Below are positions 4,001 through 29,948 of a DNA stretch of 64,000 nt, piece by piece. The notes beneath the pieces are model-generated. The model did no database searches. It saw nothing but the letters and a program-made list of their open reading frames with translations, and was not told the DNA's origin. How positions within the stretch are numbered: the stretch's first letter is position 1; every line of letters starts with the position of its first letter. This DNA comes from a candidate division FCPU426 bacterium (lineage in GTDB: Bacteria; Oederibacteriota; Muellerivitia; Muellerivitales; Muellerivitaceae): the NCBI GenBank assembly GCA_963847625.1, contig CAWKAR010000032.1:1-64000 (forward strand), read 5' to 3'. A program made the translations under genes and the position numbers.

Positions 4001-4372
4001 GGCCGTGTCGAGGAAGGCCCCCAAGTCCCGGCTCTCAGTAGTGAAGTCGAACCGGCACTCTTGTGCCTCGTGGTAGTTCCAAAAGACGTAAGTCTCGACC
4101 GAATTGAAGCCCGCGCGTTTGAGCTTGAGCAGGATGTCGCGCCAGTTTTCCCTCGGCACCCTCGCGTAATGCACGCTGCCCGAGAGGAGGAAAGTGCGCT
4201 TTCCGTTGATGACAAAGCCCCGGCCATCGAAACGGATGGCGCGGGCCGCCGCCGGGGCTGGCGGCAGGATGTCGTCATTGGGGTGATAACTCCAATAGCC
4301 GGACCATCCGGCCATCGGCAGGAGCGCGGTAACAACCAGTGGCAGGAATAACTTTACACATCTTTTTTTCAT
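1028..4372 (-). CDS. Secreted GH35 beta-galactosidase with C-terminal CBM35/CBM6-like module
   Basis: SGSVHYARVP, ETYVFWNYHE, VRVGPYCCAEWENGGFP, QLENE and YMAHGGTNFG motifs; signal peptide after MKKR; C-terminal YEAE...NLDYL module. Start at 4372 or 4387. Confidence 0.92.
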   Translation of the reverse strand: MKKRCVKLFLPLVVTALLPMAGWSGYWSYHPNDDILPPAPAAARAIRFDGRGFVINGKRTFLLSGSVHYARVPRENWRDILLKLKRAGFNSVETYVFWNYHEAQECRFDFTTESRDLGAFLDTAKDVGLWAIVRVGPYCCAEWENGGFPTWLIFKPGLEVRKYNRPYLKCVDAWFDHLLPIIAQRQIHKGGNVILIQLENEMATDEGRHWGLDMDGGYFRHLLSQARRSGLEVPMYFSGLHHGGDPAPEAPVDSSFRKSPWMSTELWTTWFDRFGNVGEDLKNGERHPWEILARGGNGFNFYMAHGGTNFGYFNDDENASSYDYGTFLGQAGETRELYFRIKRLAYFAGSFSGILAGSDDATDDFQGFAQGVSVTARTGPGGTLIFLDNPGNAEVTAVLRDGARIKMAPGEITGLAVQVPIASGVTLAQADSRILGMVSQVDMTTLVCFGKAGDSGRVGFESAEAGSGATIQDAGFHLNPGSNTALSFIFPSKGVGEETLNFGTAKIRILVMSKETADKTWFVDAAVGRQIVVGTPYLGEFNWSSSGDPQFTVDHPYGSAAPSELSLYGEEGAKKVRVPAAPSASPEKVQWSQWEMALATSPIDPKAWFSLLDGAPPAIGQDGDTSAYAWYSTRVSNSRPVSLLKFKRIGDRASLFVDGKWAAYYDTGTMGKNFEVPVTIAPGDHSLSIFTAYSGRSKFYPYTGNLNFLAARKGLAGPVESGDGSVTLTGWKMRGGADPDSPSLKWSTTAEAEGMPAFYRTTFHLVRLPETGFVYRFATDGLSSGSLWLNGHNLGRYPEILKGCTGIWLPSCWMKVGKNSLAVFDELGRSPAKSNARLEETASRYRISVGGDAVTSYAQGGPWFLVPELKAQSILPAASKGGEKPGPFLPGEYGHSTHEGKRIYIHLNGWREKTLVLPPIPARVVYAALSTGGHAGFIQTVHKINVFLDPGNTKARQMLLVLALDRPADGIGPVTTTGRPIPVLRPAGTVYEAEEAALSGGAEVASDHEGFLGKGFVAGYYQGLGQKTAFTVTASAGGKYRGIVRFANGMGSKQTLTLVVNGKSMGKLGFKDLGDWETWGNLELNLDLKKGANSVVLQKETGDGCVNLDYLAVQ

Positions 4373-4403
4373 CCGGTTGATCCCCAATGAATCTTCTGCC
4401 TGG

Positions 4404-9827: not shown

Positions 9828-11651
9828 TTATAAGCTTTCTTTTTCGCGGTAAATTTGCGGAGATAAACCGGTTGCCCGCTTGAAAGCCTGGATGAAATAA
9901 CTAGAAGAGTTGAACCCGCTTTCCTGGGCTACACGCTCGACAGAAAGAGGACTAGTCCGCAAAAGGCGCTTGGCCTCCTCCAAGCGCAGGCCCTGGAGGT
10001 ATTTTGAAAAACCCAGCCCCGTCGTCCTGCGGAAGCCCTTCAAGAAGGTGGGCACGGAAAGGCCTGTTCGTTCCACCAAATCCTTCAATTTAACTTCCTT
10101 GGTGAAATTTCGGTCCATGAATTGCTTCACTTCCTCCATGCGCGCCAGGCGCCTTCCCTCGGAGGGACGGTCCCCGACTTTCCCGATTTTCTCCAGACCC
10201 TCGCGGAACAGTGAGAGCATCTCTTGGATGGTGGGAGCCTTGAGCAGACGTTCTTCCAGCGAATCGGCCAGCACGTCCAATTCCTGTTCCGAAACAAAAC
10301 AGCTGCGAAGGGAATCCGTCATGATGAAGAAGGCCTCCAGCAGGCAGAGCCGAAGGCTTTCGTTCTGCTCGTTGGAGTAAATGAGCGCCTGGCGAATGAA
10401 TTCCGCCCGGGCCGCTTCCCGTTCCTGATGCGAACCTCCCCGGTAGGCCTTTCGAAGCCAGGCTAGCGCCGGGCGGAGGCCCTGGCCCTGCCGAATCGGT
10501 ACTTTTTCCGCGTAATCCTCGTAAAAAATCAAGGAGCGCCCCATCGAGGAGCAAAGGTTCATGGCCATCACTGCCTGCAGACGAGATTCCACAAGCTTGA
10601 CCCCGGGCGCCAGGGTGGAGCCGATGCCAACCAGAAGTTCCATGCCGGTCTTTTTCTCCAGGCGGCGGCAAATGGCCTCCACGCGTTCTCGGATTTCCAA
10701 CTTGGCCTGCACCTTGGTCTTCGAGGGCGACGCCGAGGTCACGAACAGCACACCGTAATCCTCCAGTTTGCCGGCGACGGTCTCGGGAAATTCCCGGGCC
10801 ACGCTTAAGGCCTCCCATTGTAACCGGTTCGCGCAAACCATGGATTTCAATGTGGACCATTGCTCCAGAGCCGGAGCATGGTGGGTGACCGCCAGTACGG
10901 TCGTGGGGTAGCGTGTGATTCCCAGTTCCTCTTTTTCCCATTTGTGCGAGACTTCGCCAACGCTCACCCTCGGATGGAACTTATCCAGTCCCAGCATGAA
11001 GTCCATCCAAATGAAATGCGGCAGGCAGTGGGAAATACAGCCTTTTCGCAACACTTCCAGCCGTTCCGCCATTTGTTCATCCGCCCGGCCGCACAAGTAG
11101 TCCGCGAGGATTTCTAGAAGCTCCTGGCTTCCTTCCAAGGCGGGTGGAGTCAGCACAACGGTATCAAGCGCCATGCGGGCGTAATCCAGGAAATCCGGGT
11201 CTGGAGCATCAGCGCGCCGGCCGGAAAGGGAGGTCCATTGCGTGCAAATCTCGGTTTCCGTGAAGAATTTCTTCACAAAGGACCCGGTTGCCAGGAAGCC
11301 GTGAAAGGTGTCATCGGTGACCACCGGGATAAAAATTTCGTTGAACCCGCGGTGTTTCCCTATCAGGGTTCTTCTTTCCTTCTTCAGCCGAGAGAAATAC
11401 AGGTTGTTGAACTGCTCTCGGTCACCGGTCTTCCCGAAAAGAGATTCAAAGTGAGTGGGATTATGTAGGAAATTGTGGCTGTAGAAAAGGGGTCTCCAAT
11501 CGGAATAATTCCCGGCCGGGACAAAGAAACAGTTCAGGTTCAAGTAAGTAGCGAAGAGATTGTAGATACGCATGTAGATAGTGAAATAAAGGTCCCGATT
11601 GACGCTGGGAGGAAGGAAAATCGGTTTGGAATTCCGGCCTGTAGAGCTCAC
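9828..11651 (-). CDS. AraC-family regulator with large N-terminal sensor region (PocR-like)
   Basis: C-terminal double HTH (FSKYLQGLRLEEAKRLL...VAQESGFNSSSYFIQAFKRATGLSP); N-terminal HRGFNEIFIPVV...GFLATG. Confidence 0.88.
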   Translation of the reverse strand: MSSTGRNSKPIFLPPSVNRDLYFTIYMRIYNLFATYLNLNCFFVPAGNYSDWRPLFYSHNFLHNPTHFESLFGKTGDREQFNNLYFSRLKKERRTLIGKHRGFNEIFIPVVTDDTFHGFLATGSFVKKFFTETEICTQWTSLSGRRADAPDPDFLDYARMALDTVVLTPPALEGSQELLEILADYLCGRADEQMAERLEVLRKGCISHCLPHFIWMDFMLGLDKFHPRVSVGEVSHKWEKEELGITRYPTTVLAVTHHAPALEQWSTLKSMVCANRLQWEALSVAREFPETVAGKLEDYGVLFVTSASPSKTKVQAKLEIRERVEAICRRLEKKTGMELLVGIGSTLAPGVKLVESRLQAVMAMNLCSSMGRSLIFYEDYAEKVPIRQGQGLRPALAWLRKAYRGGSHQEREAARAEFIRQALIYSNEQNESLRLCLLEAFFIMTDSLRSCFVSEQELDVLADSLEERLLKAPTIQEMLSLFREGLEKIGKVGDRPSEGRRLARMEEVKQFMDRNFTKEVKLKDLVERTGLSVPTFLKGFRRTTGLGFSKYLQGLRLEEAKRLLRTSPLSVERVAQESGFNSSSYFIQAFKRATGLSPQIYREKESL

Positions 11652-12109: not shown

Positions 12110-13042
12110 ATGAAGCAATCACCTTGGATGGTCCTAGTCTTGTTTTTAATCTTGCAGTCGGTCTGGATTTCCTTTGAGGGTTGCCACAATGGGGCTTCCC
12201 CGACCATTCCTCCCATTCTTACATCCACGCCCACCAAAACCCTGACTCCAACCCCCACGTTTACCTTGACCTTGACCATTACCAACTCACGCACAAACAC
12301 TCCGACCGCCACTCCCACTCCCACAACCACTAATACCAACACCCCATGGCCGACAAATGTTCCTACTTCGACTTTTACCATTACATCTACTGATACCGAT
12401 ACTCCAACCATTACCGAAACCCCGACCAATACCAACACACAGATCTATACACCGACAGTTACCTTAACAAACACTCCCACCAACACGTTCACTTCAGTCG
12501 CACCTGCAAACTGCACCTCCACCTCCACGCCCGCCCTCATCGATGATTTTGAGGCCAACACAAGTTCCAACACGTCCATCCTACAGGATCAATGTCGCAC
12601 AGGTTATTATTTCTGGTACGGAAATCCGAGTCCGAGCGTCGTTGTTGCCTCACCCGGAACAGGATTCGCTTGTACGAGTGGAACCAGCGCCAATGCCCTT
12701 CATTATACCAGTGGACCGGTGACTGGTTATGGATCCGTTTTCGCTATTGCTTCCATTTCAGGAGGAGAACCTTATGACATCAGCAGTTTCACGGGGATTC
12801 ATTTCTGTGGAATGTTGGGAAGCACAGCCGCAGCCATCGGGCCGGGTACCCTGGAAATTGATGATGCGAGTGGCGGCAATAGTAAGTCCACGATTCCCAC
12901 TTTTACAACTTCTTGGCAACAGATCCAAATTGCCTTTCCACTCACCGGCGCAAACCTTCACCAGGTTACGACAATACTCTGGACCGATGGAACGACCACT
13001 TCCCCAGTGGACTATTGGTTAGATAACATTTCTTTCTATTAA
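12110..13042 (+). CDS. Lipoprotein with long Thr/Pro linker and CBM11/CIA30-like domain
   Basis: RBS AGGAGG before ATG 12110; FEGC lipobox; about 100 aa T/P/N-rich linker; LIDDFE...YDISSFTGIHF...WQQIQIAF...YWLDNISFY. Confidence 0.75.
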   Translation: MKQSPWMVLVLFLILQSVWISFEGCHNGASPTIPPILTSTPTKTLTPTPTFTLTLTITNSRTNTPTATPTPTTTNTNTPWPTNVPTSTFTITSTDTDTPTITETPTNTNTQIYTPTVTLTNTPTNTFTSVAPANCTSTSTPALIDDFEANTSSNTSILQDQCRTGYYFWYGNPSPSVVVASPGTGFACTSGTSANALHYTSGPVTGYGSVFAIASISGGEPYDISSFTGIHFCGMLGSTAAAIGPGTLEIDDASGGNSKSTIPTFTTSWQQIQIAFPLTGANLHQVTTILWTDGTTTSPVDYWLDNISFY

Positions 13043-13224
13043 AAAAGTTAGATGCTTCATCGTGTAGCCCCAATGACGCGCCTCCAGTTGTTGAAGCACC
13101 GATAAAGTCACTCTATAAACTCAGTTAGTTGAGGTCGTCATAGGCTTGAAGTTGCTGTTGGGCCCCATGTGGACACTTTTCGTGCCGATGTTTTGCCGAA
13201 CCGAACATTTAAATTAAGGTGGTT

Positions 13225-13998
13225 ATGAACCAGAGAAAATATCCTATCCTCTTTCCCGTTTTTTTCGCGCTAGGGTTGTTTGCCGGTTGCGGGGCGGTGC
13301 TGGTTAATAAAGGCTCAAAGGACGAACCCCTTTCAGCCGGGTTGAAAAACCCCGAAACCACCCTGCCCAAGATCATCGTGCCGGCCGAGCAAAAGCTCAT
13401 CGGGAATTTCGAGGACGGCACGGTCCACATGAACCCCAACCTTTACGGAACCAAGGGCGCGGGCCTTTGGAGCGTCAACACCTACGGCGGAAGCACCATC
13501 AACGAGGTGTTCGTGGTTCCCGGCGGGGCCAACGGCACCAAGATGGCCGCCCATATTTTCGGTAAATTGGTGAACAAGGGAGACGGAGCCTATCCTTCCT
13601 TTCTCCTGGACGGCAAGTTCAAACCCAACGGTTACTTCGACGCCAGCCCCTTCAACGGAATCCGTTTCTATTACAAGGCGGCCTCCAGCGACCAGGCCCC
13701 TTCCAGGCGCTTTACCATCCCCATCGCACCCACTATGCCCTCCTCCGCGGGAGGAACCTGCACCGACAACTGTTACAACAATTTCGGCTGGGACCTTTCC
13801 TCCAAGGGGGATTGGGCCCTCATCACCCTTCCATTCAGCAACCTCACCCGGCAGTCGGGATGGGGAAATCCCATCACGCCGCCTGAGTTCACAGAGCACT
13901 TGAATGAGATACTGGGCATAGAGTGGTCCCATAACGCGGGCAACACCGCGGGAACTTATAACATCGATTACTGGGTGGATGAGGTCGAGTTTTTTTAA
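13225..13998 (+). CDS. Lipoprotein, CIA30/CBM11-like carbohydrate-binding domain
   Basis: FAGC lipobox; LIGNFEDG, FDASPFNGIRFYYK, WALITLPFSNLTRQSGWG, YWVDEVEFF. Confidence 0.78.
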   Translation: MNQRKYPILFPVFFALGLFAGCGAVLVNKGSKDEPLSAGLKNPETTLPKIIVPAEQKLIGNFEDGTVHMNPNLYGTKGAGLWSVNTYGGSTINEVFVVPGGANGTKMAAHIFGKLVNKGDGAYPSFLLDGKFKPNGYFDASPFNGIRFYYKAASSDQAPSRRFTIPIAPTMPSSAGGTCTDNCYNNFGWDLSSKGDWALITLPFSNLTRQSGWGNPITPPEFTEHLNEILGIEWSHNAGNTAGTYNIDYWVDEVEFF

Positions 13999-14070
13999 TA
14001 AAAATTTCGGAAGACAAGTTCCGGGTATTGAAAAGTTGAAACTGGTTTAATTTGTTGATGCGAGGTTATT

Positions 14071-16896
14071 TTGATTCTTAGATTCAAGACAACATTCAAG
14101 GGCTTCCTTTTCTTAGCCCTTCTATATATAGGCCCTCTGGCTACAGGCCTTTGGGCGAATCCTTCGGATAATGTGACTTCCGACGAACCCCTTTACCAGC
14201 GCGTGAAGGCGTTGGAAGCCTACGGCCTTTTGGATTCCCAAGACCAGGCAGTCCTCGACCAGGGCCGGGTGGTGACGAAACTGGAGTTGGATTTCTTCAC
14301 GGAAAAGGCCAAGGCCAACTACCAGGCTTCCCAAGGGTTGCAGGTCGCCCTGGCGTCCCAGGCCGCGTCCACTTCCGCCTCTAAAGCTACTCCGGCTCCA
14401 ACGGCGGTAACGGCGACAACACCGGCCACGGATCCGGATTTCGTGCAAGGGTTCTCTCTTTACCAGCAAAAGCAGTACGCCCAAGCCGTTCCCAAATTCC
14501 AGGCTGTCATCCAGCAAAACCCGAATAACGCGATGGCCTACTATTACTTGGGTTATTGCCAGGTCATGGCGGGGAACACAAAGGAAGGCGCGGTGGCTTT
14601 GACCCTGTTCCTTCAGAAACAACCCAATCCTTCCATCCAGGATTACCTCACACGAGTGAAGGCCAAGCTGACGCCAGCGGACCAGCAATGGGTTGACGCG
14701 CAAACGGCCGCCACATCGAATCTAACTCAACCCGCCAACGCCGATCTCGAGCGGGAAATCAACGCACTCCTCAAGATCCTCGATGAGGAATCGGATTATC
14801 TCAAGACGAGAATGGCTTTGGACGACTACCGTTTGCAAGAACAGGAAAAGGAACTGGAGGCCTTGCAAACCACACAGGATGACGTCAACTCGGTCTTCCG
14901 GAAGTCCAACAAGTCCTCCGGCTCCCCCCATTTCACCTATACGGCGGACAACCGGACGGAAAACCTTCACCTGTCGGGCATCACCGTGGTGGGCGCTACC
15001 CATAGCTATTACGAGTTCACCTTGGGAGTCTGGAGCGACTTGGGAGGGGAAGGCGCATTTACCATGAATATCAACGGAAGCGTCCCGGATTGGAACTCTT
15101 CCTCGGCCCCGGTCTCCTTTTCCGTAAATTCCTCGTCCTTGAATTTCAATGTGGACGGAATGCTGGGACACTGGAGCAACACCGTGGCGGTGGAAGCCTA
15201 CTCCTTCGACACGGATTTGGGGGATTTCACCAGGGGCGCTGGCACGAATTCCCTGCGTTTCGAGGATCCCTTCGACATCAAGAGGTATTCGGGCGACAAG
15301 AACCAAAAATGCTGGGACGATTACATGACAAACCTGGGGTTCGTCCCCAGTACGGCCTCCTGGACCAATCAGAACCAGAGTATGGAGGTTTTCGACGGCC
15401 TCTACATGGTTGGAACCAAATTGCCCCTGGTCAGTAAGGACGCGAAACTGAACCTGCTCGTCGGCAGGACGGACGGTGACCCCCACCGATGGGAAGAAGG
15501 GCTCAGGTACAGCCAGCCCTGGGCCAACGGCTTGTTGCAGACTTCCCTGTCAACCGAGTGGGTGAACGAGGACGAGCTGAACGCCTCGGTAACCCAGGCG
15601 AATATGGGCATGAAATCCTGCGCAGGGTACTTCGGTTTAGACTTTAAGCCCGTGGTTTTGGGTTTTGAGCTTGGATACAGCCATTTATATACCGGCATAT
15701 ATAATTCCAGCGTTACGAGTTACGCCCCTAACGGCAACATTAAACCCCTCACCTATGACGCCCCTGCCGGCCAGACCTCCTTGAACCTTTACCCCTTGAC
15801 GTTTTATTACACGGCCATCAGCGATGAATTCTCGAATTTCCAAAGCAAGGTTGTCCTCGGAGGAATCCAGTTCTGGAAGTTCGGTTTTCCCGGCCAGCCC
15901 GTAATGGACGACAATTTCGGGTATGTGGGCCTACCGGGTGACCTTGTCAGCGACCGATACGGCTGGCGGGTCAACCTGGGATGGAAGGGGCGCCAGGAAA
16001 GCTGGACCAAGCCCCTGCCAGATTTCCTGGATGACATAATCATCAACTTGGACGTTGCCCAGAGAACCGAGTACCAATCCATGCAGGACGAATTGGGCTA
16101 TTACCCCGTGGAGGCCTACAACCTCATCTCGGTTTTTTATCCGGAGGACAACGGCATATTCGGAACCATGTGGTCCAACTGGGGGACGACGCATTTTGCT
16201 GGCCAAGAATACGTCAATAATATTGAAGGCCTCCGCAACGACGGGAATAACTTCGGGCAATACGTCATCAACTTTGGCCCGCCTGTTTCTGAGCGAATCC
16301 CGTTGATTATCGCGGCAGATAGCAATTATCAGCCAGTCCCTGTTGGAACCTCCCCAGCGACGCATCCTGTAACTACGATATCCGGGGGTCCCACAACCAT
16401 CAGCAATTACGTCTATCTCTCCAATTTGAAGACATACCATTACGTTACCCTGACCTTAAAACCTCAGCTGAACAAAATTTTTAAAATTAACACCCCGTTT
16501 TATGCCGGCCTCTTCTTCACCGATAACCAAGTCGCAGGAACCTCCGGCGATCCATCATTGGAAAAAATGCCGGATCCCAACCGGCCAGGCCAAACCCTGG
16601 GGAACATTCCTAACCTGTTCGAACAAACCGTTTACGACGCAGCCTTTTTATATGGGGTTTTCAACCACGTCAACCTCCTTGTGGATTACGGGCTGGAGCT
16701 GTGGAAATCCAACTATACCTATCCCAGGGTTGATTACCGGACGGATTCCGTGGGAACCGGGTTCGCTTACGACATCCCTTGGAGCGGATGTAAATGGGAA
16801 TTTCGCTATAAACATATCAATTTCCGGGACCTATATGTCTCGGCCAACAGCTACCAAGCGGACCAGGTTTATTCCTTTTTCCTCTTCCAGTTTTAA
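14071..16896 (+). CDS. Large outer-membrane protein A: SLH-like N-terminus, TPR, coiled coil, predicted beta-barrel
   Basis: Signal peptide; SDNVTSDEPLYQRVKALEAYGLL; TPR (YAQAVPKFQAVIQQNPNNAMAYYYLG); heptad segment; amphipathic strands; ends FFLFQF. Confidence 0.7.
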   Translation: MILRFKTTFKGFLFLALLYIGPLATGLWANPSDNVTSDEPLYQRVKALEAYGLLDSQDQAVLDQGRVVTKLELDFFTEKAKANYQASQGLQVALASQAASTSASKATPAPTAVTATTPATDPDFVQGFSLYQQKQYAQAVPKFQAVIQQNPNNAMAYYYLGYCQVMAGNTKEGAVALTLFLQKQPNPSIQDYLTRVKAKLTPADQQWVDAQTAATSNLTQPANADLEREINALLKILDEESDYLKTRMALDDYRLQEQEKELEALQTTQDDVNSVFRKSNKSSGSPHFTYTADNRTENLHLSGITVVGATHSYYEFTLGVWSDLGGEGAFTMNINGSVPDWNSSSAPVSFSVNSSSLNFNVDGMLGHWSNTVAVEAYSFDTDLGDFTRGAGTNSLRFEDPFDIKRYSGDKNQKCWDDYMTNLGFVPSTASWTNQNQSMEVFDGLYMVGTKLPLVSKDAKLNLLVGRTDGDPHRWEEGLRYSQPWANGLLQTSLSTEWVNEDELNASVTQANMGMKSCAGYFGLDFKPVVLGFELGYSHLYTGIYNSSVTSYAPNGNIKPLTYDAPAGQTSLNLYPLTFYYTAISDEFSNFQSKVVLGGIQFWKFGFPGQPVMDDNFGYVGLPGDLVSDRYGWRVNLGWKGRQESWTKPLPDFLDDIIINLDVAQRTEYQSMQDELGYYPVEAYNLISVFYPEDNGIFGTMWSNWGTTHFAGQEYVNNIEGLRNDGNNFGQYVINFGPPVSERIPLIIAADSNYQPVPVGTSPATHPVTTISGGPTTISNYVYLSNLKTYHYVTLTLKPQLNKIFKINTPFYAGLFFTDNQVAGTSGDPSLEKMPDPNRPGQTLGNIPNLFEQTVYDAAFLYGVFNHVNLLVDYGLELWKSNYTYPRVDYRTDSVGTGFAYDIPWSGCKWEFRYKHINFRDLYVSANSYQADQVYSFFLFQF

Positions 16897-16949
16897 AGGG
16901 AAAACGCCGGGCTAGGGAGGCCCGGAAAAATTCAAGGGAAAGAAGAAAC

Positions 16950-19142
16950 GTGAAAAAAATATCCATCAATTTAATTGTAACCGCCTTTTTCACCGGATTG
17001 GCCTTTAACGCTTGGGCCGGCCATGGGGTCTTGACCTCCACGGAACGGGATCCCTGGGTGAACCAGACCGTCCAGGATTTGGTGGACGCAGGTTTGGTTG
17101 TCCAACCCCAGAAACCCGTGGGCCAGTTGACCAACTTGGAAGTGGCCCAATTGACCCACTTAGCCGTCCAATCCTGGCTGTCCCAGGATCAGGAAGCCCT
17201 GACTTCCGCCGGAACCAGAACCCAGGGCCCCGAACCCGCGGTGAGCCGAAGCCTGCAGAAACTGGCGGACGAGTTCCAGGATGAGCTAATAACCATGGGC
17301 CAGGACATGGCCCAACTTGAGGACAGGCTGTACGACTCCCAGCACCGAAACGAGATATTCAAAACCCTCCAGCAGGAATACCTGAAGCGAACTGGAACAA
17401 GCATGGCGGGATACGCCAGGGGCTATTTCAATACATACCGTGGTTCCGGGATCAACGCCCCTTACGGCCCGTGGGACAACAACGATATTCTGCTGGGGGA
17501 CATCATCCTGAAGAGCATCCCGGTTTCATTCCTTTTATTCAACACGGACTTGCGTGTAACCCGAACCAACGGCTTGATATACGCGGATCCGATCAATCCA
17601 ACGTTCAACCTGCGCTGGATTTCCCTCACCTACGCCAACGAGTTGGCCAATTTTACTGCCGGCGACTTTTTCCGGAGTTACACCCCCTTGACGCTCTGGA
17701 ACTATGAAATCCCGGTTTATACCCTGATCGAACCCAGTTCCTACCAAAGGGTCCGCAATGACATCGAGGGAATGATATTTATGGACCATGGGCCTAATTG
17801 GCACATGCGGGGTTTTGAGGGGACCTCGGACAAGGCCGTTACCAACAGCGATGTGTTCAGTTCCTTTCACTTGCAGGCCATGGGCGGGATCTTAACGCCG
17901 GAATCACAATATGTTTACGCTAATGATTACGCCGGAAGCGAAGCGGCCTTGGACTTGTTCGGGGACAAGCTGGAATTCAAAGGCGCCGGTTACCTTCTTT
18001 GGGTGGATACCAACAGCGTCAATTACATTTCGGGAATAACGCCGAACGGGGAGCAATATCAGGTGGGTAGCCTCTCGGCAAAGGGAACCCTGCCCCTGGG
18101 AAAATCCGTCACGCTGTCAGCCAACGGCGAATACGCCTCTAGCTACTACCAGGATGACGCCAACCAAAACCAGAATAACCTCAAGGATTGGGCAGTCCTC
18201 GCTGGCGGTTCCTTGGATTTCGAGGGTGCTCTATTAAGTGTTAAATACTTAAGCAACGGACCTAATTTTTATTCACCCGGGGCACAAACCAACCGCTTCA
18301 GCCCCGTTCCAAGTACCGCCGGTTATTTGAACGGGAACCAAAAGCTGGATGACGGCCTTTCAGGCTACCTGGATAATTACGTCTTCCAAGGTGTCGGCCA
18401 ACCTATGTTCGCCCCCTATGACCGCATGGCGGAGAATATCCTTCCATACGGCGACTCCACCCCAAACCGGGAGGGCCTAATCCTGGGGTTGAAAGCTGAT
18501 CTTGGAAAGGGAGGATGGCTCAAGCCCAAGGCGTCCATGGCGGTCAACATGCACGAAGTGCAGCCGGATATTCTGACCGTGGTTGAACATTATTACATTC
18601 CCGCGGATAGCCAGATCAATACGATAGCCGCGAGGAAATTCGGAGGATATGAGGGGGCTCTGGTCTTGGATTTGGGCAAGGTTCTCGAAGGGGCGCCTAA
18701 AACCTGTGCCTTATCCGGCGATTACAAGCACCAGAGTGTTGACCTGGGAACAGGGGCAAACCCATTTACGTTGGACAGTTATATCGCCAGCGCGGATATC
18801 GGCCCTTTCCCCCACGTACCCCTTTTTGAAGGACTGGTTCTTTCTGCGTCTTTTGAACAGGCAAAATCCAGCGGAAGCGAATTCGTTCTGAGTGAACCCG
18901 CCACAATACCCCCGACCCTGGCGGAATACGCCTCCTACTATGACACGTCCTTGATCGGAGGTTACATTTACCAGCCGCTGGATTTCACCCGCACATCCTG
19001 GGCTTTCGGCTTCAAATGTAATTTAAGCCGAACCTTTGAATTGCACGGGGATTGGTTCATCAACAAATACACCTGGTCCGATGTCCCAGGCTATGACCGT
19101 CGTGAACAGATTTGGAGGTTATCCGCAGATGTTTCTTTCTAA
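16950..19142 (+). CDS. Large outer-membrane protein B: SLH-like N-terminus, coiled coil, predicted beta-barrel
   Basis: Signal peptide (AWA); DPWVNQTVQDLVDAGLV...LTNLEVAQL; LQKLADEFQDEL; ends LSADVSF. Confidence 0.72.
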   Translation: MKKISINLIVTAFFTGLAFNAWAGHGVLTSTERDPWVNQTVQDLVDAGLVVQPQKPVGQLTNLEVAQLTHLAVQSWLSQDQEALTSAGTRTQGPEPAVSRSLQKLADEFQDELITMGQDMAQLEDRLYDSQHRNEIFKTLQQEYLKRTGTSMAGYARGYFNTYRGSGINAPYGPWDNNDILLGDIILKSIPVSFLLFNTDLRVTRTNGLIYADPINPTFNLRWISLTYANELANFTAGDFFRSYTPLTLWNYEIPVYTLIEPSSYQRVRNDIEGMIFMDHGPNWHMRGFEGTSDKAVTNSDVFSSFHLQAMGGILTPESQYVYANDYAGSEAALDLFGDKLEFKGAGYLLWVDTNSVNYISGITPNGEQYQVGSLSAKGTLPLGKSVTLSANGEYASSYYQDDANQNQNNLKDWAVLAGGSLDFEGALLSVKYLSNGPNFYSPGAQTNRFSPVPSTAGYLNGNQKLDDGLSGYLDNYVFQGVGQPMFAPYDRMAENILPYGDSTPNREGLILGLKADLGKGGWLKPKASMAVNMHEVQPDILTVVEHYYIPADSQINTIAARKFGGYEGALVLDLGKVLEGAPKTCALSGDYKHQSVDLGTGANPFTLDSYIASADIGPFPHVPLFEGLVLSASFEQAKSSGSEFVLSEPATIPPTLAEYASYYDTSLIGGYIYQPLDFTRTSWAFGFKCNLSRTFELHGDWFINKYTWSDVPGYDRREQIWRLSADVSF

Positions 19143-21495
19143 GAGCCAATACCTCCAGAAATTATTCATGACCGCCCTGATGGCCTCGGCGTTTTGCGGG
19201 ACTTCTTGGTGTTTTTCTTCCAGCGATCCTTTCACGATCGTGCCAGCGGGGGACCCCACTTATTCGGAATTAAAACAACTGGCCCGGGCTGGATGGTTGT
19301 CGGGAAAAGACGTTTCGTGGGCTTCCCTGACCCGGTATGACGTGGCCAAACTCATCCTGAAAGCGCAAAAGAATTCCAATGAAATAACCTTGGCCCAAGC
19401 GAACATCACCACACCCACCCCATCCAGCCAGGTGGGCACGCTCGAACCGTTACAGGAAACAGGAATCGCCCCGGTCACCGCTGCCGGGCCTGCTAAACAA
19501 TCCGCCGCCGAAATAGCCGCGGTCCGGGCCCAGGCCGCCAAATCCCTCCACAGCCTCCAGGAAGCCTACCAATACGAACTCAATGCTCTTAAAGAAAAGT
19601 TAAAAGCCCTCCAGGAAAAAGCCACCGAATTGGAGGCCCAGCAATACAACTTCAGAAAGAAGTTGATGGGCTTCAACCAAAACTCCAGCATAGCAATACA
19701 CGGCTTGGGACTTGCTTATGGTTATTCGCAACAATTCATTGGGAATTACCCGGTTTATATCAATGGAAATCCCGGTACCCGGACAACCCTGGGATACTTG
19801 GACTTGGAACCGATGGGAACCATCTCCAAGGAAGTCAGTTGGGACACGATCCTGAGGCTACAATCCTCACTGATGCCCAACGACACGCCCCAACTCGACC
19901 TACGCCGCATTAGGTTGGATTACAATCCATCTTGGCTTTCGGCCACTTTAGGCGATTTCGACGAGTCTTACACCCCCTTCACGATATGGAACAGAAACAG
20001 TCTTGACCTGGCCTATGCCCCGGAAATGTGGAGCCGCTGGGACAACAGAGTCAAATACGAGAACTTCTTCAATGACGAGCCCAACTGGCCGTTTCGCGGA
20101 TTGAGGGTGGGCGAGTCGGTGATGTGGCCTGACTCTGGCGCCCTGGATTCCCTGAAGTCCTCGGCCTTTATCCACATGATCCGCAACGGGTACAATTACA
20201 ACAGCGGCTCTTATTTCGGCCCCAACCAGTACACTGATTGGATTTTCGCGGGGACTGTGGGGTTGAAATCCAGGAAATGGTTCTTGGGCGGAACCTCCCT
20301 TCAGTTAGGGCTTGATTCCTACGGCATCATCCTGGATGAACCCCTTGATACGGAACAACCTGGTTCCCCCTACGACCCGGAGAATCCCGCGACTTGGGCG
20401 CACCAATACTTGATCGGCAGCCTCAAACCCGACATCAAGGTCGGGTTAGGGGACGATTGTTATGTCGGGGGAACTGGCGAGTACTCCTATTCCAATTACC
20501 AGGCCGACAAGAGGAACCCTGGCCGGGTGATCGGGGATTACGCGGTGATGGCCGGCCCTTACGTCAAGTTCGGCCATTCCACGCTTAGCGTGAATTACCT
20601 TAACGTCGGCCCCTACTATTATTCCCCCTTGGCACAGACCCGGCAGGACGGCGTCTCCTTAGTCAATGGACTCACGGCACCCTCCATGACCTCGCCCGAC
20701 CTCTTCTACCCCATGTTGAACTACCAGTATGTCTTGCAGGATGTGCCACGCCCCGGAGACATCTTCGGCTTTTACGACCGCACCCAGGATAATACCTTCC
20801 CCTACGGTATGGCCACCCCCAACCGGGAAGGATTCGGCCTGGAAACCGACCTGAAATTGCTTTGGAAGGAAACCCTATGGATCAAGGGTTCCGCCTACCG
20901 GGTCAAGGAAATATTCAGCAATATGGTCGTCAACAGCTCGCAAACGGGATATATTCCCGTGGACCTTCCTTTCAACACTGCCTTGATTCCCATCCGGAAT
21001 TTCACTTATGTCAACGCGGGCCCTTCATTTAATTTGGGGCCCTCTTTGGGCTGGGACCGGGACTTGGAAATTGGCTCCAACGTCCGTTATGAGCAAACCA
21101 CCAGCGACCTGGGGACCTTGACCAGTTCCTGGATCATCGGGGGGTTGAGGGTCGACCTTTTGCCGGTTTGGGAAATCGCCGCCGCCATCAGCCAGCAGAA
21201 CTCAAAGGGAACCGACGCAGGTTTTCAATACAAGGATAATGACGGAGTGTTTCACCAAACACTTTGGGCCCGTTATTCCTACGTGTATGACAACAAAGAC
21301 CTTGGGCATTACGCGCCTTTCACCGTCGACGGCAACATCATGAGCCTGAGGTTTTCCAGCATTATCAAGGCCAACCGCAATTCCAACATCTACTTGGATT
21401 ACGATTGGACAAAGGGGAACCTGATGCCCGGGAATCCCGTCCAAGGCACCGTCAATAATCAATTCATGGAGTTGAGTTATGAAATCCAATTTTAA
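19129..21495 (+). CDS. Large outer-membrane protein C: SLH-like N-terminus, coiled coil, predicted beta-barrel
   Basis: GGAGG before ATG 19129, overlapping the previous stop; FTIVPAGDPTYSELKQLARAGWL...LTRYDVAKLI; LQEAYQYELNALKEKLKALQEK; ends LSYEIQF. Confidence 0.72.
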   Translation: MFLSKSQYLQKLFMTALMASAFCGTSWCFSSSDPFTIVPAGDPTYSELKQLARAGWLSGKDVSWASLTRYDVAKLILKAQKNSNEITLAQANITTPTPSSQVGTLEPLQETGIAPVTAAGPAKQSAAEIAAVRAQAAKSLHSLQEAYQYELNALKEKLKALQEKATELEAQQYNFRKKLMGFNQNSSIAIHGLGLAYGYSQQFIGNYPVYINGNPGTRTTLGYLDLEPMGTISKEVSWDTILRLQSSLMPNDTPQLDLRRIRLDYNPSWLSATLGDFDESYTPFTIWNRNSLDLAYAPEMWSRWDNRVKYENFFNDEPNWPFRGLRVGESVMWPDSGALDSLKSSAFIHMIRNGYNYNSGSYFGPNQYTDWIFAGTVGLKSRKWFLGGTSLQLGLDSYGIILDEPLDTEQPGSPYDPENPATWAHQYLIGSLKPDIKVGLGDDCYVGGTGEYSYSNYQADKRNPGRVIGDYAVMAGPYVKFGHSTLSVNYLNVGPYYYSPLAQTRQDGVSLVNGLTAPSMTSPDLFYPMLNYQYVLQDVPRPGDIFGFYDRTQDNTFPYGMATPNREGFGLETDLKLLWKETLWIKGSAYRVKEIFSNMVVNSSQTGYIPVDLPFNTALIPIRNFTYVNAGPSFNLGPSLGWDRDLEIGSNVRYEQTTSDLGTLTSSWIIGGLRVDLLPVWEIAAAISQQNSKGTDAGFQYKDNDGVFHQTLWARYSYVYDNKDLGHYAPFTVDGNIMSLRFSSIIKANRNSNIYLDYDWTKGNLMPGNPVQGTVNNQFMELSYEIQF

Positions 21496-21556
21496 TAATG
21501 TACCGACCAGAGGGGACCTCCAACCCCGACCGGGGCAGGCGAAAGGAAGGGCGGCC

Positions 21557-22261
21557 GTGAAAAACTTGATATTGACGGCCATCAGCTTGGCCCTATTGGA
21601 ATTTTTGGCCCTGCTTACCCCGGGTTGCACAACCAAATTCCCTTCCATCACCACCATGTCACCTTGTTACCCTTATATTTTGCAGACTTTTAATAATTAT
21701 TCGGATTTAAGTAATATTAGTAATGGCGGGCAAACATTCGGAACAGGACCCGTCACTGGCGTTAATTCAGGAGTCACAGTCGTTTATTCCCTTTCGCCCC
21801 TATATGCCACTCAGGGAAATTTGTCCTTGGATGCCGATATCCTATCGGCCCCGATGACGAACGGCATGGTCGAAAATTGGAACGATAAGATATTCTTTTA
21901 TAACACTAAAAACATACCGGGAGCGAGCTGGAACGATTATTCCATGTTAATCTCGGATGTCTACATCGATGCTTCGGTAATCCAAGGGGCGGGATACCAA
22001 CAACTCCAACTTTGGGCCGACTCACCAGCAAGCAATAATTACTACCAACCCATCTGCCTCCCAAAGAACCAGCCCAACATTGCGTCCGGCCAGCAAGCCC
22101 TCACCTGGGTCATCGATTTTACAGCAGGTAAAATACCCCCTGGTTCACAACTCAGTGACATATATTTCATTCTCAACGCGAATACGACTAATGGAACGGG
22201 AAATATCTACATTGACGATATGCGGTTGGCTTATAAGGTCTGTCCGACTCCCACACCATAA
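21557..22261 (+). CDS. Lipoprotein, putative carbohydrate-binding beta-sandwich
   Basis: AAGGAAGG before GTG 21557; TPGC lipobox; ATQGNLSL, SWNDYSMLISDVY, GNIYIDDMRL; ends PTPTP. Confidence 0.68.
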   Translation: MKNLILTAISLALLEFLALLTPGCTTKFPSITTMSPCYPYILQTFNNYSDLSNISNGGQTFGTGPVTGVNSGVTVVYSLSPLYATQGNLSLDADILSAPMTNGMVENWNDKIFFYNTKNIPGASWNDYSMLISDVYIDASVIQGAGYQQLQLWADSPASNNYYQPICLPKNQPNIASGQQALTWVIDFTAGKIPPGSQLSDIYFILNANTTNGTGNIYIDDMRLAYKVCPTPTP

Positions 22262-22399
22262 TTTCCCGGAAAACAGTTCGCCATAGTTTCATCCCAGGAA
22301 GTTCATATTCTACCTGTTAAAATATTTACACACGAATAACAGCGGGCCTTTCCTTGAAGGAATAAATTCTCCACTGCCTGGGATGGATATGGAGGAATT

Positions 22400-25180
22400 T
22401 TGAAAAATCACGCGTTTACCCGGTTTTTGCTGGTTTCCGTTATCCTTTTGCCGCTGAAAGTAATGGGCCGCGAAGGAGTTGGGCGTGAACGCATCCTTAT
22501 GGATGCGGAGTGGCGATTCCGTTTGGGAACCATCAGCGGATCGGAGATTAATAACGGCATTGTGATCACTAACTGGCGTTATCAGGGGCCCTGGAAAACA
22601 AAACCCGCCGATATTGAGAAATCCCTGGACGCCACGGGAGTGAAAACCTCCGGATCGGATTGGAAGGATGCCGTCAACGGAAAGGACCTTTTCGACAACA
22701 AACCTGGATTCGCCTTGTGCCGGGCGGTTATGCCCGATTTCCCGGGCCCCCACCGGGTGCTTCATTTCGCGGGAGTGGACGACAACTGTACCGTTTACGT
22801 TAACGGAAAAAAAATGATTTACCACGAGGGGTGGAACGACTCCTTCGACATTGACCTGGACCCGGTTTGGAAGGAAGGTGGCTCCAATGAGGCGGCGGTC
22901 CTGGTCGAAAACATCTGGGGAGGAGGAAACATTAAAGAAGCCGATCTGTTATCCCCCGACAGGGTTGAAAAAATTCCGGATGCGGCCATGCCGGGTTACG
23001 ACACTAATGGATGGAAAAAAGTCCATATCCCCCACGATTTCGTGGTGGAAGGCACCTTCGATTTCAACGCCGACGGCAGCCACGGGTTCCTTCCCAAGAA
23101 CGCGGCTTGGTATCAAAAGACCTTCGACCTTCCGATTTCGGATAAGGGGAAGGCCTTGTGGATTGACTTCGACGGCATTTACCGGGACAGCCGCATTTGG
23201 CTGAACGGCAAGTTGTTGGGCCGCCATTTGAGCGGTTACACGGGTTTCCGCTACGACATCACGCAAGCCGCCAACTACGGAGGAAAGAACATTTTAACCG
23301 TGTACGTGGATGCGCGCGATTCCGAGGGCTGGTGGTATGAGGGAGGCGGCATCTACCGCCACGTTTGGCTTAACAAAGCCTACCCCTTGCATGTGGAACC
23401 TTGGGGCGTATGCGTGGTTTCCGCTCCCAACCGGGAATCCAACCCTACCCAAGCCTCCGTCCGGATCGAAACTTCCATGATCAATGAGGCTGGAGTGAAA
23501 AAGACTTTCCGCCTTGTTTCCCAGGTAAAGGATGCTCATGGCAAGATCGTCGGCAAGCTGTCGGGGGCCAAGATTTTGGGGGCCGGTTCTAAAACCGTTC
23601 TTTCCCAAAAGATCGCCTTGGCCCGGCCCCTCCTTTGGTCGTTGGAAGACCCATATCTTTATACCCTCGAGACAAATGTCATGGTGGGGTCCGATGTGGT
23701 GGACAGCGTTACGACCCCATTTGGCATTCGTACCATCCGCTTTGACACAGGGAAGGGGTTTTTCCTGAACGGCCGGCCCGTCAAGATCAAGGGAACCTGC
23801 AATCACCAGGATTTCGCGGGGATCGGAATCGCCATTCCCGACCGTATTTTTGCTTACCGGTTGGACCGCCTGAAAGATATGGGCTCCAACGCCTACCGAT
23901 GCTCGCACAATCCCCCGGCCGCCGAATTGCTCGACGAGTGCGACCGGAAGGGCGTGTTGGTGATGGATGAGAACCGCAAGCTGGGCGACACGCCGGAAAT
24001 TCTCGGCCAAGTACGCAGCATGGTCCTGAGGGACCGGAACCACCCCAGCGTCATCCTTTGGTCCCTGTGCAACGAGGAAGCCCTGCAGGGCTCGCCCACG
24101 GGACAAGCCAGGGGAGAAGCCATGAAAAAAATGATCATAGGTCTGGATAAGACCCGTCTCATTACCTGTGCCATGAACGGGGGATTCGGCTCCGGGCTCT
24201 CCAACGTGGTGGACCTCCAAGGCTTCAACTACCATCCTAAGGAATACGAACCCTATCACCAAAACCACCCCAAAATACCGCTTTTCGGCAGCGAGACTGG
24301 CAGTACGGTTTCCACGAGGGGTATCTACGCGGACGCCAAGGATAAGGGCTACGTGAGCGCCTACGACGTCAATCCCCCCGGGTGGGCCAACACGGCGGAA
24401 GAGACGTGGCAAGCCATCGACCGTCCCTACATGGCGGGCTGCTTTGTCTGGACGGGTTTCGACTATAGGGGCGAACCCACGCCTTATTGGTGGCCTTGCA
24501 TCAATTCCCATTTTGGGTTGATGGATATGTGCGGTTTCCCCAAGGATAACTTTTATTACTACCAGTCCGTTTGGACCGGCAAACCCATGGTGCATCTCCT
24601 TCCGCATTGGACTTGGAAGGGAAAAGAAGGCCGCGAAATCGCGGTTTGGGCCTACAGCAACTGCGATCAGGTGGAACTGTTCCTGAATGGCAAAAGCCTG
24701 GGTGTAAAGGACAACCCCAAAGACGGGCATATGGAGTGGAAAGTGAAGTACGGACCCGGCACGCTTTCCGCCAAGGGCAGCAAGGATGGAATGGTGGCGG
24801 CGGAAGACAAAGTGGAAACCACCGGTGCGCCCGCCAAAATCCGTTTGACGCCGTACCAAACGGGGCTTTTGGCGGATGGCGAGGATGAAATGCCCGTCAA
24901 GGTGGAAATACTCGACTCGGAGAACCGTATCGTGCCCACGGCGGGAAACGAGGTGACTTTCCGGGTGACTGGAGCCGGGCTGGTGGCAGGCGTGGCCAAC
25001 GGCGACCCCTCCAGCCATGAGCGGGACAAGGCGGGGGAAGGGCCCGCGCATCGCAAGGCGTTCAACGGACTTTGCATGGCCGTAGTCGGATCCACCAATG
25101 AGGCTGGCCCTGTCACCATTACCGCCGCTTCGGCCGGATTGGAGCCGGCTACGGTGGTTTTAACTTCCACGGTTCCTTGA
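22400..25180 (+). CDS. Secreted GH2 glycoside hydrolase (beta-galactosidase-like)
   Basis: WWYEGGGIYRHVWL, FGIRTIRFD, KGTCNHQD, NAYRCSHNP, RDRNHPSVILWSLCNEE, FVWTGFDYRGEPTP; extra N-terminal sugar-binding domain. Confidence 0.94.
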   Translation: MKNHAFTRFLLVSVILLPLKVMGREGVGRERILMDAEWRFRLGTISGSEINNGIVITNWRYQGPWKTKPADIEKSLDATGVKTSGSDWKDAVNGKDLFDNKPGFALCRAVMPDFPGPHRVLHFAGVDDNCTVYVNGKKMIYHEGWNDSFDIDLDPVWKEGGSNEAAVLVENIWGGGNIKEADLLSPDRVEKIPDAAMPGYDTNGWKKVHIPHDFVVEGTFDFNADGSHGFLPKNAAWYQKTFDLPISDKGKALWIDFDGIYRDSRIWLNGKLLGRHLSGYTGFRYDITQAANYGGKNILTVYVDARDSEGWWYEGGGIYRHVWLNKAYPLHVEPWGVCVVSAPNRESNPTQASVRIETSMINEAGVKKTFRLVSQVKDAHGKIVGKLSGAKILGAGSKTVLSQKIALARPLLWSLEDPYLYTLETNVMVGSDVVDSVTTPFGIRTIRFDTGKGFFLNGRPVKIKGTCNHQDFAGIGIAIPDRIFAYRLDRLKDMGSNAYRCSHNPPAAELLDECDRKGVLVMDENRKLGDTPEILGQVRSMVLRDRNHPSVILWSLCNEEALQGSPTGQARGEAMKKMIIGLDKTRLITCAMNGGFGSGLSNVVDLQGFNYHPKEYEPYHQNHPKIPLFGSETGSTVSTRGIYADAKDKGYVSAYDVNPPGWANTAEETWQAIDRPYMAGCFVWTGFDYRGEPTPYWWPCINSHFGLMDMCGFPKDNFYYYQSVWTGKPMVHLLPHWTWKGKEGREIAVWAYSNCDQVELFLNGKSLGVKDNPKDGHMEWKVKYGPGTLSAKGSKDGMVAAEDKVETTGAPAKIRLTPYQTGLLADGEDEMPVKVEILDSENRIVPTAGNEVTFRVTGAGLVAGVANGDPSSHERDKAGEGPAHRKAFNGLCMAVVGSTNEAGPVTITAASAGLEPATVVLTSTVP

Positions 25181-26468: not shown

Positions 26469-26835
26469 TAGCCTATGCCATCCAGCCATGATGCAACACT
26501 TCCCGATTGCATCCCTTAACTAAACGATGATGCTCTCTTTGAAGTGGAGTGCAACCTGTGGAGGGTTGCATTCGAAAAAACAGTGGCACAGATTTGGCAC
26601 AGAAAGTTTGTCACACCCTGTCATTTTGTGGCAGTTTGTGGCACCTTCACCAGTGACATTTGATCAGGAAGCCGGGGCAAAAAATTTAGTTTTTTTCATT
26701 GCCGTCCAAATTAAACAAAAACCAAGGAACAAAGATAAATTAAATCAGAAGTTTTTAATTCTAAAAGGCGTTAAGCAAAACCAAGTCCTTTGCCACATGC
26801 CAATCTTCCATGATTCTTATAAAGGGATTGGTATG

Positions 26836-27060
26836 GTACCGATTTCATTAACTGCCTTATGGTGAATCGGCACAGATTCAGGGGATGCACTCGGATAGCC
26901 AAAACATTCATGAAAAACATGAATGAATTTTAAATTTTGAATTATGAATTTTTAATTTTAAGTAAATCCCATGTATCCCATGCATGCCAGCCATCAATAA
27001 TTCTTTTAATGAGGCTGGTAACGTACCGATTTCTTTAACTGTCTTAATGTGAATCGGCAC
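26836..27060. repeat. Two direct copies of a 38-bp imperfect palindrome (26836-26873, 27023-27060)
   Basis: GTACCGATTTCATTAACTGCCTTATGGTGAATCGGCAC vs GTACCGATTTCTTTAACTGTCTTAATGTGAATCGGCAC, 34/38 identical. Confidence 0.85.
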
Positions 27061-27128
27061 ATTGACCTTTCCCCCGAAAACTGATCCAAAAATATGTTAG
27101 TTTTGGATTATAGATCGGGAGGGGAAAG

Positions 27129-28225: not shown

Positions 28226-28258
28226 CTTAAATTTGGATCAAACATTGGGGGAAGGTCA

Positions 28259-29052: not shown

Positions 29053-29099
29053 AATCGCTTTTCCTTATCCCTTAAACATAATTTAAAAAGGAAAAAAAG

Positions 29100-29206: not shown

Positions 29207-29337
29207 TATTTTTTTAGTTCGGAGTGAGGCATGAAGAAAAATGGGGAGTGCGGAGCCCATTCGACAGGCTCAGGGCAGGTTAGAAGTGAGAAATTGTGCA
29301 AAATTTGACTACAGCACAAAATCGATAATATAAGAAT

Positions 29338-29906: not shown

Positions 29907-29948
29907 TATTTAATTGCAATTTCACTCATAAGCCTTGAAGGACTGCCG

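Follow-up and report, generated by a model that had tools for sequence, protein, structure and literature searches.

How a polysaccharide could be captured and taken up without the SusC/SusD pair is the question raised by a gene cluster of a candidate division FCPU426 bacterium (GenBank assembly GCA_963847625.1). The DNA analysed, called the window below, is the stretch from position 1 to position 64,000 of contig CAWKAR010000032.1, which is part of a 4.43 Mb genome that is 94% complete. Within it, a co-directional run of seven plus-strand genes (12110-25180) encodes two lipoproteins (LP1 and LP2), three large outer-membrane proteins (OMP-A, OMP-B and OMP-C), a third lipoprotein (LP3) and a GH2 enzyme, and is divergent from minus-strand genes for an AraC regulator and GH44, GH29 and GH35 enzymes. 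A preliminary description of the window had given this arrangement, and every open reading frame (ORF) was found in place and in the expected direction. It had also proposed a SusC/D-independent system of glycan capture and uptake built on a repurposed OmpM-like scaffold. Our analysis supports the first part of that proposal but not the second: judged by profile comparison, OMP-A is a homologue of CHU_1276, and OMP-B and OMP-C are homologues of CHU_1277, of Cytophaga hutchinsonii. The reading we favor, with a probability of roughly 0.65, is that the cassette encodes a wall-tethered, TonB-free channel complex with CBM-like lipoproteins, which imports xyloglucan oligosaccharides for periplasmic GH44, GH2, GH35 and GH29 enzymes.

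The relationship to the Cytophaga proteins was reached through alignments: the single OMP-B sequence found no related loci, but when genome contigs and representative proteins were searched with an OMP-B alignment, Bacteroidota-labelled records yielded proteins about 570-620 aa long. Among 38 distant loci examined, 37 carried a profile match below 1e-6, and in these 37 a co-directional barrel-sized gene lay upstream in 33 and a lipoprotein-sized gene downstream in 34. Querying with one of the distant proteins led to P0400, for which NCBI gives the name CHU_1277 family cellulose-binding protein (Cytophaga hutchinsonii). The P0400 locus (L206, in a genome with a 100% match, G068) consists of five genes encoding 747, 606, 380, 375 and 598 aa, and the product of the fourth agrees with CHU_1279 of PMC12016534 at 10 of 10 residues checked. 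The identity of P0400 is based on the source name, the genome match, the gene layout and the residue check.

Alignment of family profiles with hhalign gave a probability of 99.85% for OMP-B against the CHU_1277 family (E 1.5e-30, 481 columns), 99.89% for OMP-C against the same family (E 1e-32, 505 columns beginning at strand 1), and 91.8% for OMP-A against the CHU_1276 family (E 7.3e-7, 395 columns). An earlier value of 96% for OMP-A was discarded because the alignment contained 11 unplaced proteins; the value given here comes from the clean rerun. Proteins of the same phylum bridge the two families by matching both the OMP-A and the CHU_1276 profiles, for example the product of L208:6856-9192 at 1.2e-11 and 2.4e-17. 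The CHU_1277 profile matches exactly six ORFs among the 8804 of the source genome, all of the B or C type, and its only match in the PDB is an OprF barrel fragment (E 1e-5), which we take as generic strand similarity. The preliminary description had named CHU_1276 and CHU_1277 as proteins for comparison, and the choice was apt, the barrels being their homologues.

In C. hutchinsonii, chu_1276-1280 form a SusC/D-less, cellulose-co-induced 'atypical PUL' (polysaccharide utilization locus) in which chu_1276, 1277, 1279 and 1280 have an important or essential part in the use of cellulose, and the SusC/D homologues of that organism are not involved in it (PMC12016534). CHU_1276 and CHU_1277 are also reported to be indispensable in PMC5891637. 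CHU_1276 is predicted to be a barrel resembling TonB-dependent transporters (TBDTs), CHU_1279 bears a C-terminal domain that has a CBM11-like fold and binds cellulose, and growth on 0.1% glucose is poor in mutants of chu_1276 and chu_1279 (PMC12016534). The cassette described here is homologous to this atypical PUL and is neither a SusC/D locus nor an OmpM in the strict sense. As set out for the Cytophaga cluster in PMC12016534, a CHU_1276-type gene is followed in tandem by a CHU_1277-type gene, with flanking lipoproteins (those of the cassette predicted to be CBM-like), a linked endo-beta-glucanase (here GH44, divergently transcribed, and GH9 at other loci of the phylum) and no SusD; loop motifs of the CHU_1277 alignment are common to the cassette barrels. 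The two systems differ in that our cassette has two CHU_1277-type barrels rather than one, lipoproteins of a different, single-domain family, and enzymes of xyloglucan type (GH44, GH2, GH35 and GH29) rather than GH9, and in that it comes from a different phylum. They differ further at the N-terminus, where the cassette barrels carry an SLH domain and a coiled coil whereas we found no SLH signal in CHU_1276 or CHU_1277; the first mature residues of CHU_1277 align straight onto strand 1 of OMP-C.

Protein architecture was examined with AlphaFold2 models of OMP-B (alignment of 110 sequences; mean predicted local distance difference test score, pLDDT, 88) and OMP-A (72 sequences; mean pLDDT 78), with strands counted from DSSP assignments. 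OMP-B is predicted to consist of a signal peptide, an SLH-like domain (residues ~26-85), a coiled coil (96-146) and a 22-stranded barrel (150-730), in which strands 5 and 13 are each followed by a long loop and strand 15 by a shorter one. In the OMP-A model a signal peptide and an SLH-like domain (~29-93) are followed by a low-confidence linker, a TPR insert (~129-213), a coiled coil (224-279) and again a 22-stranded barrel (287-941), so that the two models agree in strand number and loop pattern. OMP-C is a paralogue of OMP-B with 26% identity by BLAST, and all three proteins end in phenylalanine. Neither model contains a plug, since the coiled coil passes directly into strand 1, and the Pfam families Plug and TonB_dep_Rec have no match in the cassette genes. 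The barrels thus predicted, free of a TonB plug, bear out what the preliminary description had expected of a structural check. The TPR module of OMP-A (window 14455-14709) occurs in 2 of the 72 aligned homologues and shares 71% identity with a free-standing TPR protein encoded on contig C50 of the source genome; it is probably a recent insertion.

The N-terminal domain of these proteins is homologous to the SLH domain of Veillonella parvula OmpM1. The OMP-B domain superimposes on the OmpM1 SLH (8bz2) with a VIA-align Z of 9.8 and a root-mean-square deviation (rmsd) of 2.3 over 78 residues, and the OMP-C family profile matches OmpM1 (8bys) with an E of 7.6e-5, restricted to profile positions 10-81. 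Pfam SLH has zero matches across the source genome although the domain is seen by both profile and structure. The degenerate SLH-like segment noted in the preliminary description is therefore real, and the one it quoted lies in OMP-C. By consensus the SLH motif reads TRLE in the A, TNLE in the B and TRFE in the C proteins. The stretch that begins with the coiled coil and ends at strand 1 is 58 residues long in 68/72 A, 50 in 108/110 B and 50 in 53/55 C sequences, and such a fixed stalk length is what would be expected of a stalk that assembles in register. Prediction of a complex of the three stalks (B 24-150, C ~30-188, A 29-285) returned a score of 0.00, which is evidence neither way. Every one of the 30 other genomes of the family has OMP-B relatives and the stalk lengths are nearly invariant, so the cassette is not a chance assembly.

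Above the stalk, likeness to proteins of known structure concerns barrel size. Foldseek gave generic large-barrel matches only, with TM-scores up to ~0.38, and the best VIA-align rows for OMP-B were 5t3r (Z 14.3, rmsd 4.4, 321 aligned residues) and FyuA (Z 13.9, rmsd 5.0, 380). Because Z values were tied across TBDTs, ushers and porins, we read the fold match as showing barrel size and not descent; SlpA of Deinococcus radiodurans was absent among the rows listed, which is not grounds for excluding it. With OmpM1 (8bys, 8bym, 8bz2) and SlpA the cassette proteins share the succession of SLH, coiled coil and barrel in one chain. OmpM1 and SlpA, however, are 16- and 30-stranded homotrimers (PMC10628300), whereas here the predicted barrels are 22-stranded and three different chains are encoded; with the OMP-C profile no sequence homology to the OmpM1 barrel was detected, the SLH domain alone matching. 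The cassette can be called OmpM-like only in a loose architectural sense that spans 16-30 strands, and OmpM genes are not described as part of loci of carbohydrate-active enzymes (CAZymes) in the available portion of PMC10628300. An origin of the three OMPs as OmpM paralogues was accordingly rejected, the barrel family being different, and the idea of a repurposed OmpM scaffold is not supported. We also rejected a TonB-dependent receptor that has lost its annotation, there being no plug. SusC and other TBDTs (e.g. BT1763, 5t3r) resemble the cassette in the 22-stranded size class and in having surface lipoproteins, here predicted to bind glycans, and SusC/D loci resemble it in clustering with hydrolases and a regulator; unlike them, the cassette has no plug and no adjacent SusD, and its barrels are 7-13% identical to theirs.

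LP1 joins the family of LP2 (family hidden Markov model, HMM, E 4.5e-7; hhalign 96.7%), members of which also occur in other families of the phylum and inside larger proteins. The family HMM is weakly linked to a CBM11 protein (E 1e-3). No relevant Pfam match was obtained among 38 family members, and LP2 had no significant match among PDB sequences. In the ESM Atlas the neighbours of LP2 (0.90-0.91) and LP3 (0.91-0.92) are unnamed clusters together with clusters labelled CBM30, SGBP_B_XBD and ExoP_C, a lead toward a galactose-binding-type, CBM-like sandwich for both.

Three A-B-C cassettes are encoded in the source genome. Besides the 30 family genomes, OMP-B relatives are present in the one genome available from the other family of the order (1/1), and of 99 genomes from the phylum, 65 contain the barrel family by the CHU_1277 profile; in the phylum an SLH-bearing pair is the usual form, and the triplet is the form in the source genome's family. 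In Bacteroidota, the family to which C. hutchinsonii belongs (that around G062) is represented by 41 genomes, of which 39 are matched by P0400, up to 8 times in one genome. CHU_1276/1277-type clusters were also seen in records labelled Saprospiraceae, Crocinitomicaceae and Flavobacteriales (L164-L201).

In order to see what accompanies the cassette, we mapped the neighborhoods of 61 cassette loci or locus fragments other than that of the window, from the source genome and 31 relatives. For annotation of the neighbors, representatives of 224 of the 435 clusters were scanned with Pfam, and all neighbors were swept with BLAST. Loci were classed as core or accessory by their housekeeping neighbors, and hydrolases were counted at loci with at least 8 kb of flank, so that 11 accessory loci and one core locus with shorter flanks were dropped. 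The housekeeping names used here, such as lepA and dnaK, are our own assignments from the sequences. In most family genomes the core copy sits between lacI/rlmD and lepA-lepB-hemW-hrcA-grpE-dnaK, with the CBM-like lipoproteins kept. The expectation that homologous cassettes co-occur with CAZymes was borne out in part: a glycoside hydrolase lies within 10 kb at only 17 of 49 loci of the family as a whole, yet at 16 of 22 accessory loci. What lowers the overall figure is the universal core copy, which has housekeeping genes around it and a hydrolase at 1 of 27 loci. For comparison, 1406 of 7982 placements in the source genome (17.6%) have a hydrolase within that distance. We give no P value, because the classes were set by housekeeping neighbors and kin genomes are not independent samples. 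A sugar-binding-protein gene is present at 12 of the 22 accessory loci. The preliminary description's remark that no TonB-dependent receptor, SusD or ABC transporter is recognizable agrees with our Pfam scan of the 33 window ORFs, in which none of these families is among the best 5 matches per protein; for ABC transport it is true of the window and does not extend to the accessory loci beyond it.

Genes recurring around accessory copies include GH44 or GH74, GH31, GH2/35, GH29, a SASA esterase, galactokinase, a xylose-isomerase-like gene and ABC transporter parts. One neighboring GH31 is closest to the xyloglucan alpha-xylosidases BoGH31A and Xyl31A, and one accessory locus carries a xylan-type set of GH30 and GH67. 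A FastTree phylogeny of barrel domains places the OMP-B of the window in a 20-member clade composed entirely of accessory copies (support 99), and recovers B and C as sister groups within the family, although on long branches that call for caution. The 20 loci from other families of the phylum consist for the most part of A+B pairs, and an SLH signal is seen in many; hydrolases were present in the fetched DNA at 14 of the 20 (GH9/GH8, or GH74 with GH2/GH29/GH31). One locus of another family (L218, genome G125) encodes GH44, GH35 and GH29 enzymes 82, 76 and 69% identical to those of the window, beside barrels only 22-31% alike in local alignments; this is apparently an independent pairing of the same enzymes with the same barrel family.

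Several side observations concern these loci. The GH44-GH29-GH35 block (window 1028-9248, L218:1-6636) was likely transferred horizontally, since its identity between the two loci is far above the 57-63% by which in-family GH44s from outside the genus match that of the window. A triplet in another family (L227:7610-15026, genome G035) lies in a housekeeping context with no hydrolases; in the tree, again on long branches, its two B-type genes pair with each other outside the B/C split of the source family, and triplets may have arisen twice. An SLH-less CHU_1276/1277-type pair in the source phylum (L223:7742-11494) has the sizes of the Bacteroidota forms and is followed by LP-family and CBM11 genes. 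Upstream of the core cassette, most genomes have an RlmD fusion of 1240-1540 aa (L031:5790-9935), a small conserved unannotated gene and LacI, and often a 500-aa unannotated gene as well. The extra, C-terminal domain of the RlmD fusion has no Pfam or PDB match and so gives no pointer to a glycan role of the core locus.

The location of the enzymes bears on what would have to cross the membrane. A C-terminal sorting-like domain (FlgD-Ig-like), detected with a home-made profile, marks 114 ORFs of the source genome, including 4 of 4 GH74 and 7 of 9 GH5 matches. The profile found it in 0 of the 4 hydrolases of the window and in 0 of 5 hydrolases near the second accessory cassette (C39). Signal peptides combined with the lack of the sorting domain suggest that the GH44, GH2, GH35 and GH29 enzymes of the window act in the periplasm. 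The N-terminal module of the GH44 (residues 70-200, window 8649-9041) is matched by the CHU_1279-family HMM (E 2.8e-7), as are those of GH44 homologues, and is related to the family of the cellulose-binding C-terminal domain of CHU_1279. The source genome has six Plug-bearing and two TonB genes, all of them away from the cassette contigs, as well as nine sugar-binding-protein genes, and no match to SusD (PF07980), within the stated completeness. The genome's richness in GH5, GH9, GH44 and CBM11 agrees with the description of Goldbacteria/FCPU426 in PMC7031533. As a separate matter, a 2016-aa ORF has a weak SprA_N match (C45:149549-149812; E 0.0014, below the cut-off), which together with the ~114 ORFs with sorting-like domains suggests type IX-like secretion outside Bacteroidota.

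From the computed architecture, barrel homology and gene linkage we infer transport, substrate, localization and stoichiometry as follows, the OMPs and lipoproteins together forming an outer-membrane glycan import complex of CHU_1276/CHU_1277 type that bears wall anchors. Xyloglucan would be cut outside the cell by large secreted GH74 and GH5 enzymes that bear C-terminal sorting domains and whose genes lie elsewhere in the genome. The CBM-like surface lipoproteins would catch the fragments and, like CHU_1279, may stabilize the complex. Fragments would then cross the barrels, with the loops after strands 5, 13 and 15 as the likely selectivity filter; as there is no plug, passage would be by facilitated diffusion and not TonB-driven. 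In the periplasm GH44, GH2, GH35 and GH29 would hydrolyse the fragments and, together with sugar-binding proteins, maintain the gradient. The SLH-coiled-coil stalks would hold the three barrels in a bundle fastened to the wall, of which an A-B-C heterotrimer is the simplest form, and AraC and LacI probably control induction. A heterotrimer, perhaps derived from an A-B-B ancestor, is a hypothesis suggested by the presence of three genes, the fixed stalk lengths and the OmpM precedent, in which the binding unit is made up of three SLH domains contributed by three chains (PMC10628300).

Several observations weigh against this reading. The homology of OMP-A to CHU_1276 is moderate, the hhalign probability being only 68% with an alignment that lacks CHU_1276 itself. 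LP2 has no detectable homology to the CHU_1278 and CHU_1279 families (hhalign ~6%), and the CBM-like fold of the lipoproteins rests on language-model neighbors. The periplasmic location rests on a home-made profile, and two secretins in the genome could export the enzymes. In the available text of PMC12016534, direct conduction of oligosaccharides by CHU_1276/1277 is not demonstrated. To these are added the scarcity of hydrolases beside the universal core copy, their lack at 6 of the 22 accessory loci (one core-like and one with a GH42-like fragment), the kinship of the genomes sampled, and the lack of GH31 and GH3 in the window.

The same data were weighed against other explanations. A bolder version of the import model, which we regard as tentative and would put well below even odds, makes the complex an obligate A-B-C heterotrimer of plugless barrels on a three-chain wall stalk, capped by lipoproteins, and a representative of a second class of outer-membrane polysaccharide importers, independent of TonB and running parallel to SusC/D. 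This class would be common to the source phylum and Cytophaga-type Bacteroidota and would pass long glucan fragments or chain ends; the stalks would reveal a composition of one CHU_1276 and two CHU_1277 in the Cytophaga machine, and gene duplication would have given cellulose-, xyloglucan- and xylan-specific copies. In an unlikely alternative the complex is a surface scaffold and not a pore, gripping the polymer and positioning lipoproteins and hydrolases for contact-dependent digestion while sugars enter via other porins. The NCBI name of CHU_1277 as a cellulose-binding protein would suit such a role, as would a wall tether that would resist pulling forces and long conserved loops that, in the models, could fill the lumen; yet the cassette enzymes are without the sorting domain of the secreted ones, sugar-binding proteins accompany many accessory copies, and the low-glucose growth defects of the chu_1276 and chu_1279 mutants (PMC12016534) point to permeation.

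It is less probable still that the cassette is an OmpM-like envelope tether combined with a general porin for small solutes, to which CAZyme linkage is secondary. OmpM has just such a dual role (PMC10628300), the SLH-coiled coil-barrel architecture is shared with it, and the core copy lies among housekeeping genes with hydrolases rarely nearby. Against this, the barrels are homologous to the SLH-less CHU_1276/1277 and an SLH-less pair (L223) exists in the same phylum, so that the conserved core is the barrel pair with its lipoproteins; five ORFs of the genome (6 matches) carry OmpA-type wall-binding domains, and the additional copies track CAZymes. The complex is likely to act as a tether besides importing, above all in the case of the core copy, to which the plain tether/porin explanation is also better suited. 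Least probable, in our view, is a high-affinity porin for mono- and disaccharides only, with polymers fully cut outside and the barrels scavenging dilute small sugars: the poor growth of the chu_1276 mutant at 0.1% glucose (PMC12016534), the missing plug and the lack of visible energy coupling fit it, but such sugars would need a far smaller barrel than one of 22 strands, and the presence of an endo-acting GH44 that has no sorting domain implies large periplasmic substrates. Import of xyloglucan oligosaccharides by a wall-tethered complex therefore remains the reading we prefer.

Cellulose uptake by C. hutchinsonii, which relies on neither SusC/D nor free cellulases nor cellulosomes, is still largely unclear, and the chu_1276-1280 cluster is reported only in Cytophaga, Sporocytophaga and close kin (PMC12016534). 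The barrel family is now found in another phylum and in wider Bacteroidota records, linked to different glycans, and this spread suggests a general alternative to SusC/D that is missed by PUL finders keyed on that pair. Relative to the literature searched, outside which most subscription papers lie, the new elements are the stalk of SLH domain and coiled coil that these barrels carry, the presence of a third barrel, the split into core and accessory copies, the settings of xyloglucan and xylan type and a range that extends past Cytophaga; we found nothing there on SLH-bearing CHU_1276/1277 homologues or on this cassette. The tethered version offers practical handles, in that the stalk predicts stoichiometry and soluble xyloglucan is easier to assay than crystalline cellulose, and the core and accessory pair within one genome could be used to map specificity loops.

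Features of the cassette and its divergent neighbors, in window coordinates
Feature	Position	Strand	Description and basis
LP1	12110..13042	+	lipoprotein, Thr/Pro-rich stalk and C-terminal LP2-family domain; sequence, LP-family HMM
LP2	13225..13998 (start 13219 or 13225)	+	conserved lipoprotein directly upstream of OMP-A; lipobox in sequence
OMP-A	14071..16896	+	941 aa; CHU_1276-family homologue by profile; AlphaFold2 model, hhalign, TPR by Pfam
OMP-B	16950..19142	+	730 aa; CHU_1277-family homologue by profile; AlphaFold2 model, VIA-align, hhalign
OMP-C	19129..21495	+	788 aa; signal peptide, SLH, coiled coil, barrel; BLAST, hhalign
LP3	21479..22261	+	lipoprotein, predicted CBM-like domain; start overlaps OMP-C end
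GH2 beta-galactosidase, GalA type	22400..25180	+	signal peptide; NCBIfam NF041462, PDB beta-galactosidases
AraC-family regulator, large	9828..11651	-	divergent from cassette; Pfam
GH44 endoglucanase/xyloglucanase	6675..9248	-	signal peptide; Pfam; PDB GH44 cellulases and xyloglucanase
GH29 alpha-L-fucosidase + CBM35	4404..6554	-	Pfam
GH35 beta-galactosidase + CBM35	1028..4387	-	Pfam, PDB
LacI-family regulator	1..902, running off contig start	-	translation

Pfam names the GH35 and GH29 enzymes with their CBM35 domains, GH44, AraC and GH2, and gives TPR matches only for OMP-A; no Pfam or NCBIfam family covers the OMP barrels, P0400 or lipoproteins LP1-3. The GH2 enzyme scores 1007 bits against NF041462 (GalA), for which the cut-off is 900. 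The start of OMP-C is most plausibly the ATG at 19129, preceded by GGAGG. The TPR insert of OMP-A, the CBM35 tails of the GH29 and GH35 enzymes, the CHU_1279-like module of the GH44 and the LacI gene had escaped the preliminary description; a genome of the same genus has a gene of the LacI cluster at the matching position. A scan for promoters and terminators gave counts at chance level (13 against 13.0 and 26 against 25.5). Five paralogues of the 600-aa AraC regulator, on contigs C27, C35, C49 and C50, adjoin genes for large secreted-type proteins, four of them GH5 or GH74. Downstream of the cassette, Fic-domain, integrase-core, IS110 and IS1595 transposase genes (25359-31794 and 59452-60393) mark a mobile region adjoining the accessory locus, in which the GC content falls to 0.39 at 28-30 kb. 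Two further genes beyond the cassette encode a predicted Pro/Thr-rich lipoprotein with no Pfam match (29733-30566) and a protein with zf-HC2 and PrcB_C domains that resembles an anti-sigma factor (34495-35337).

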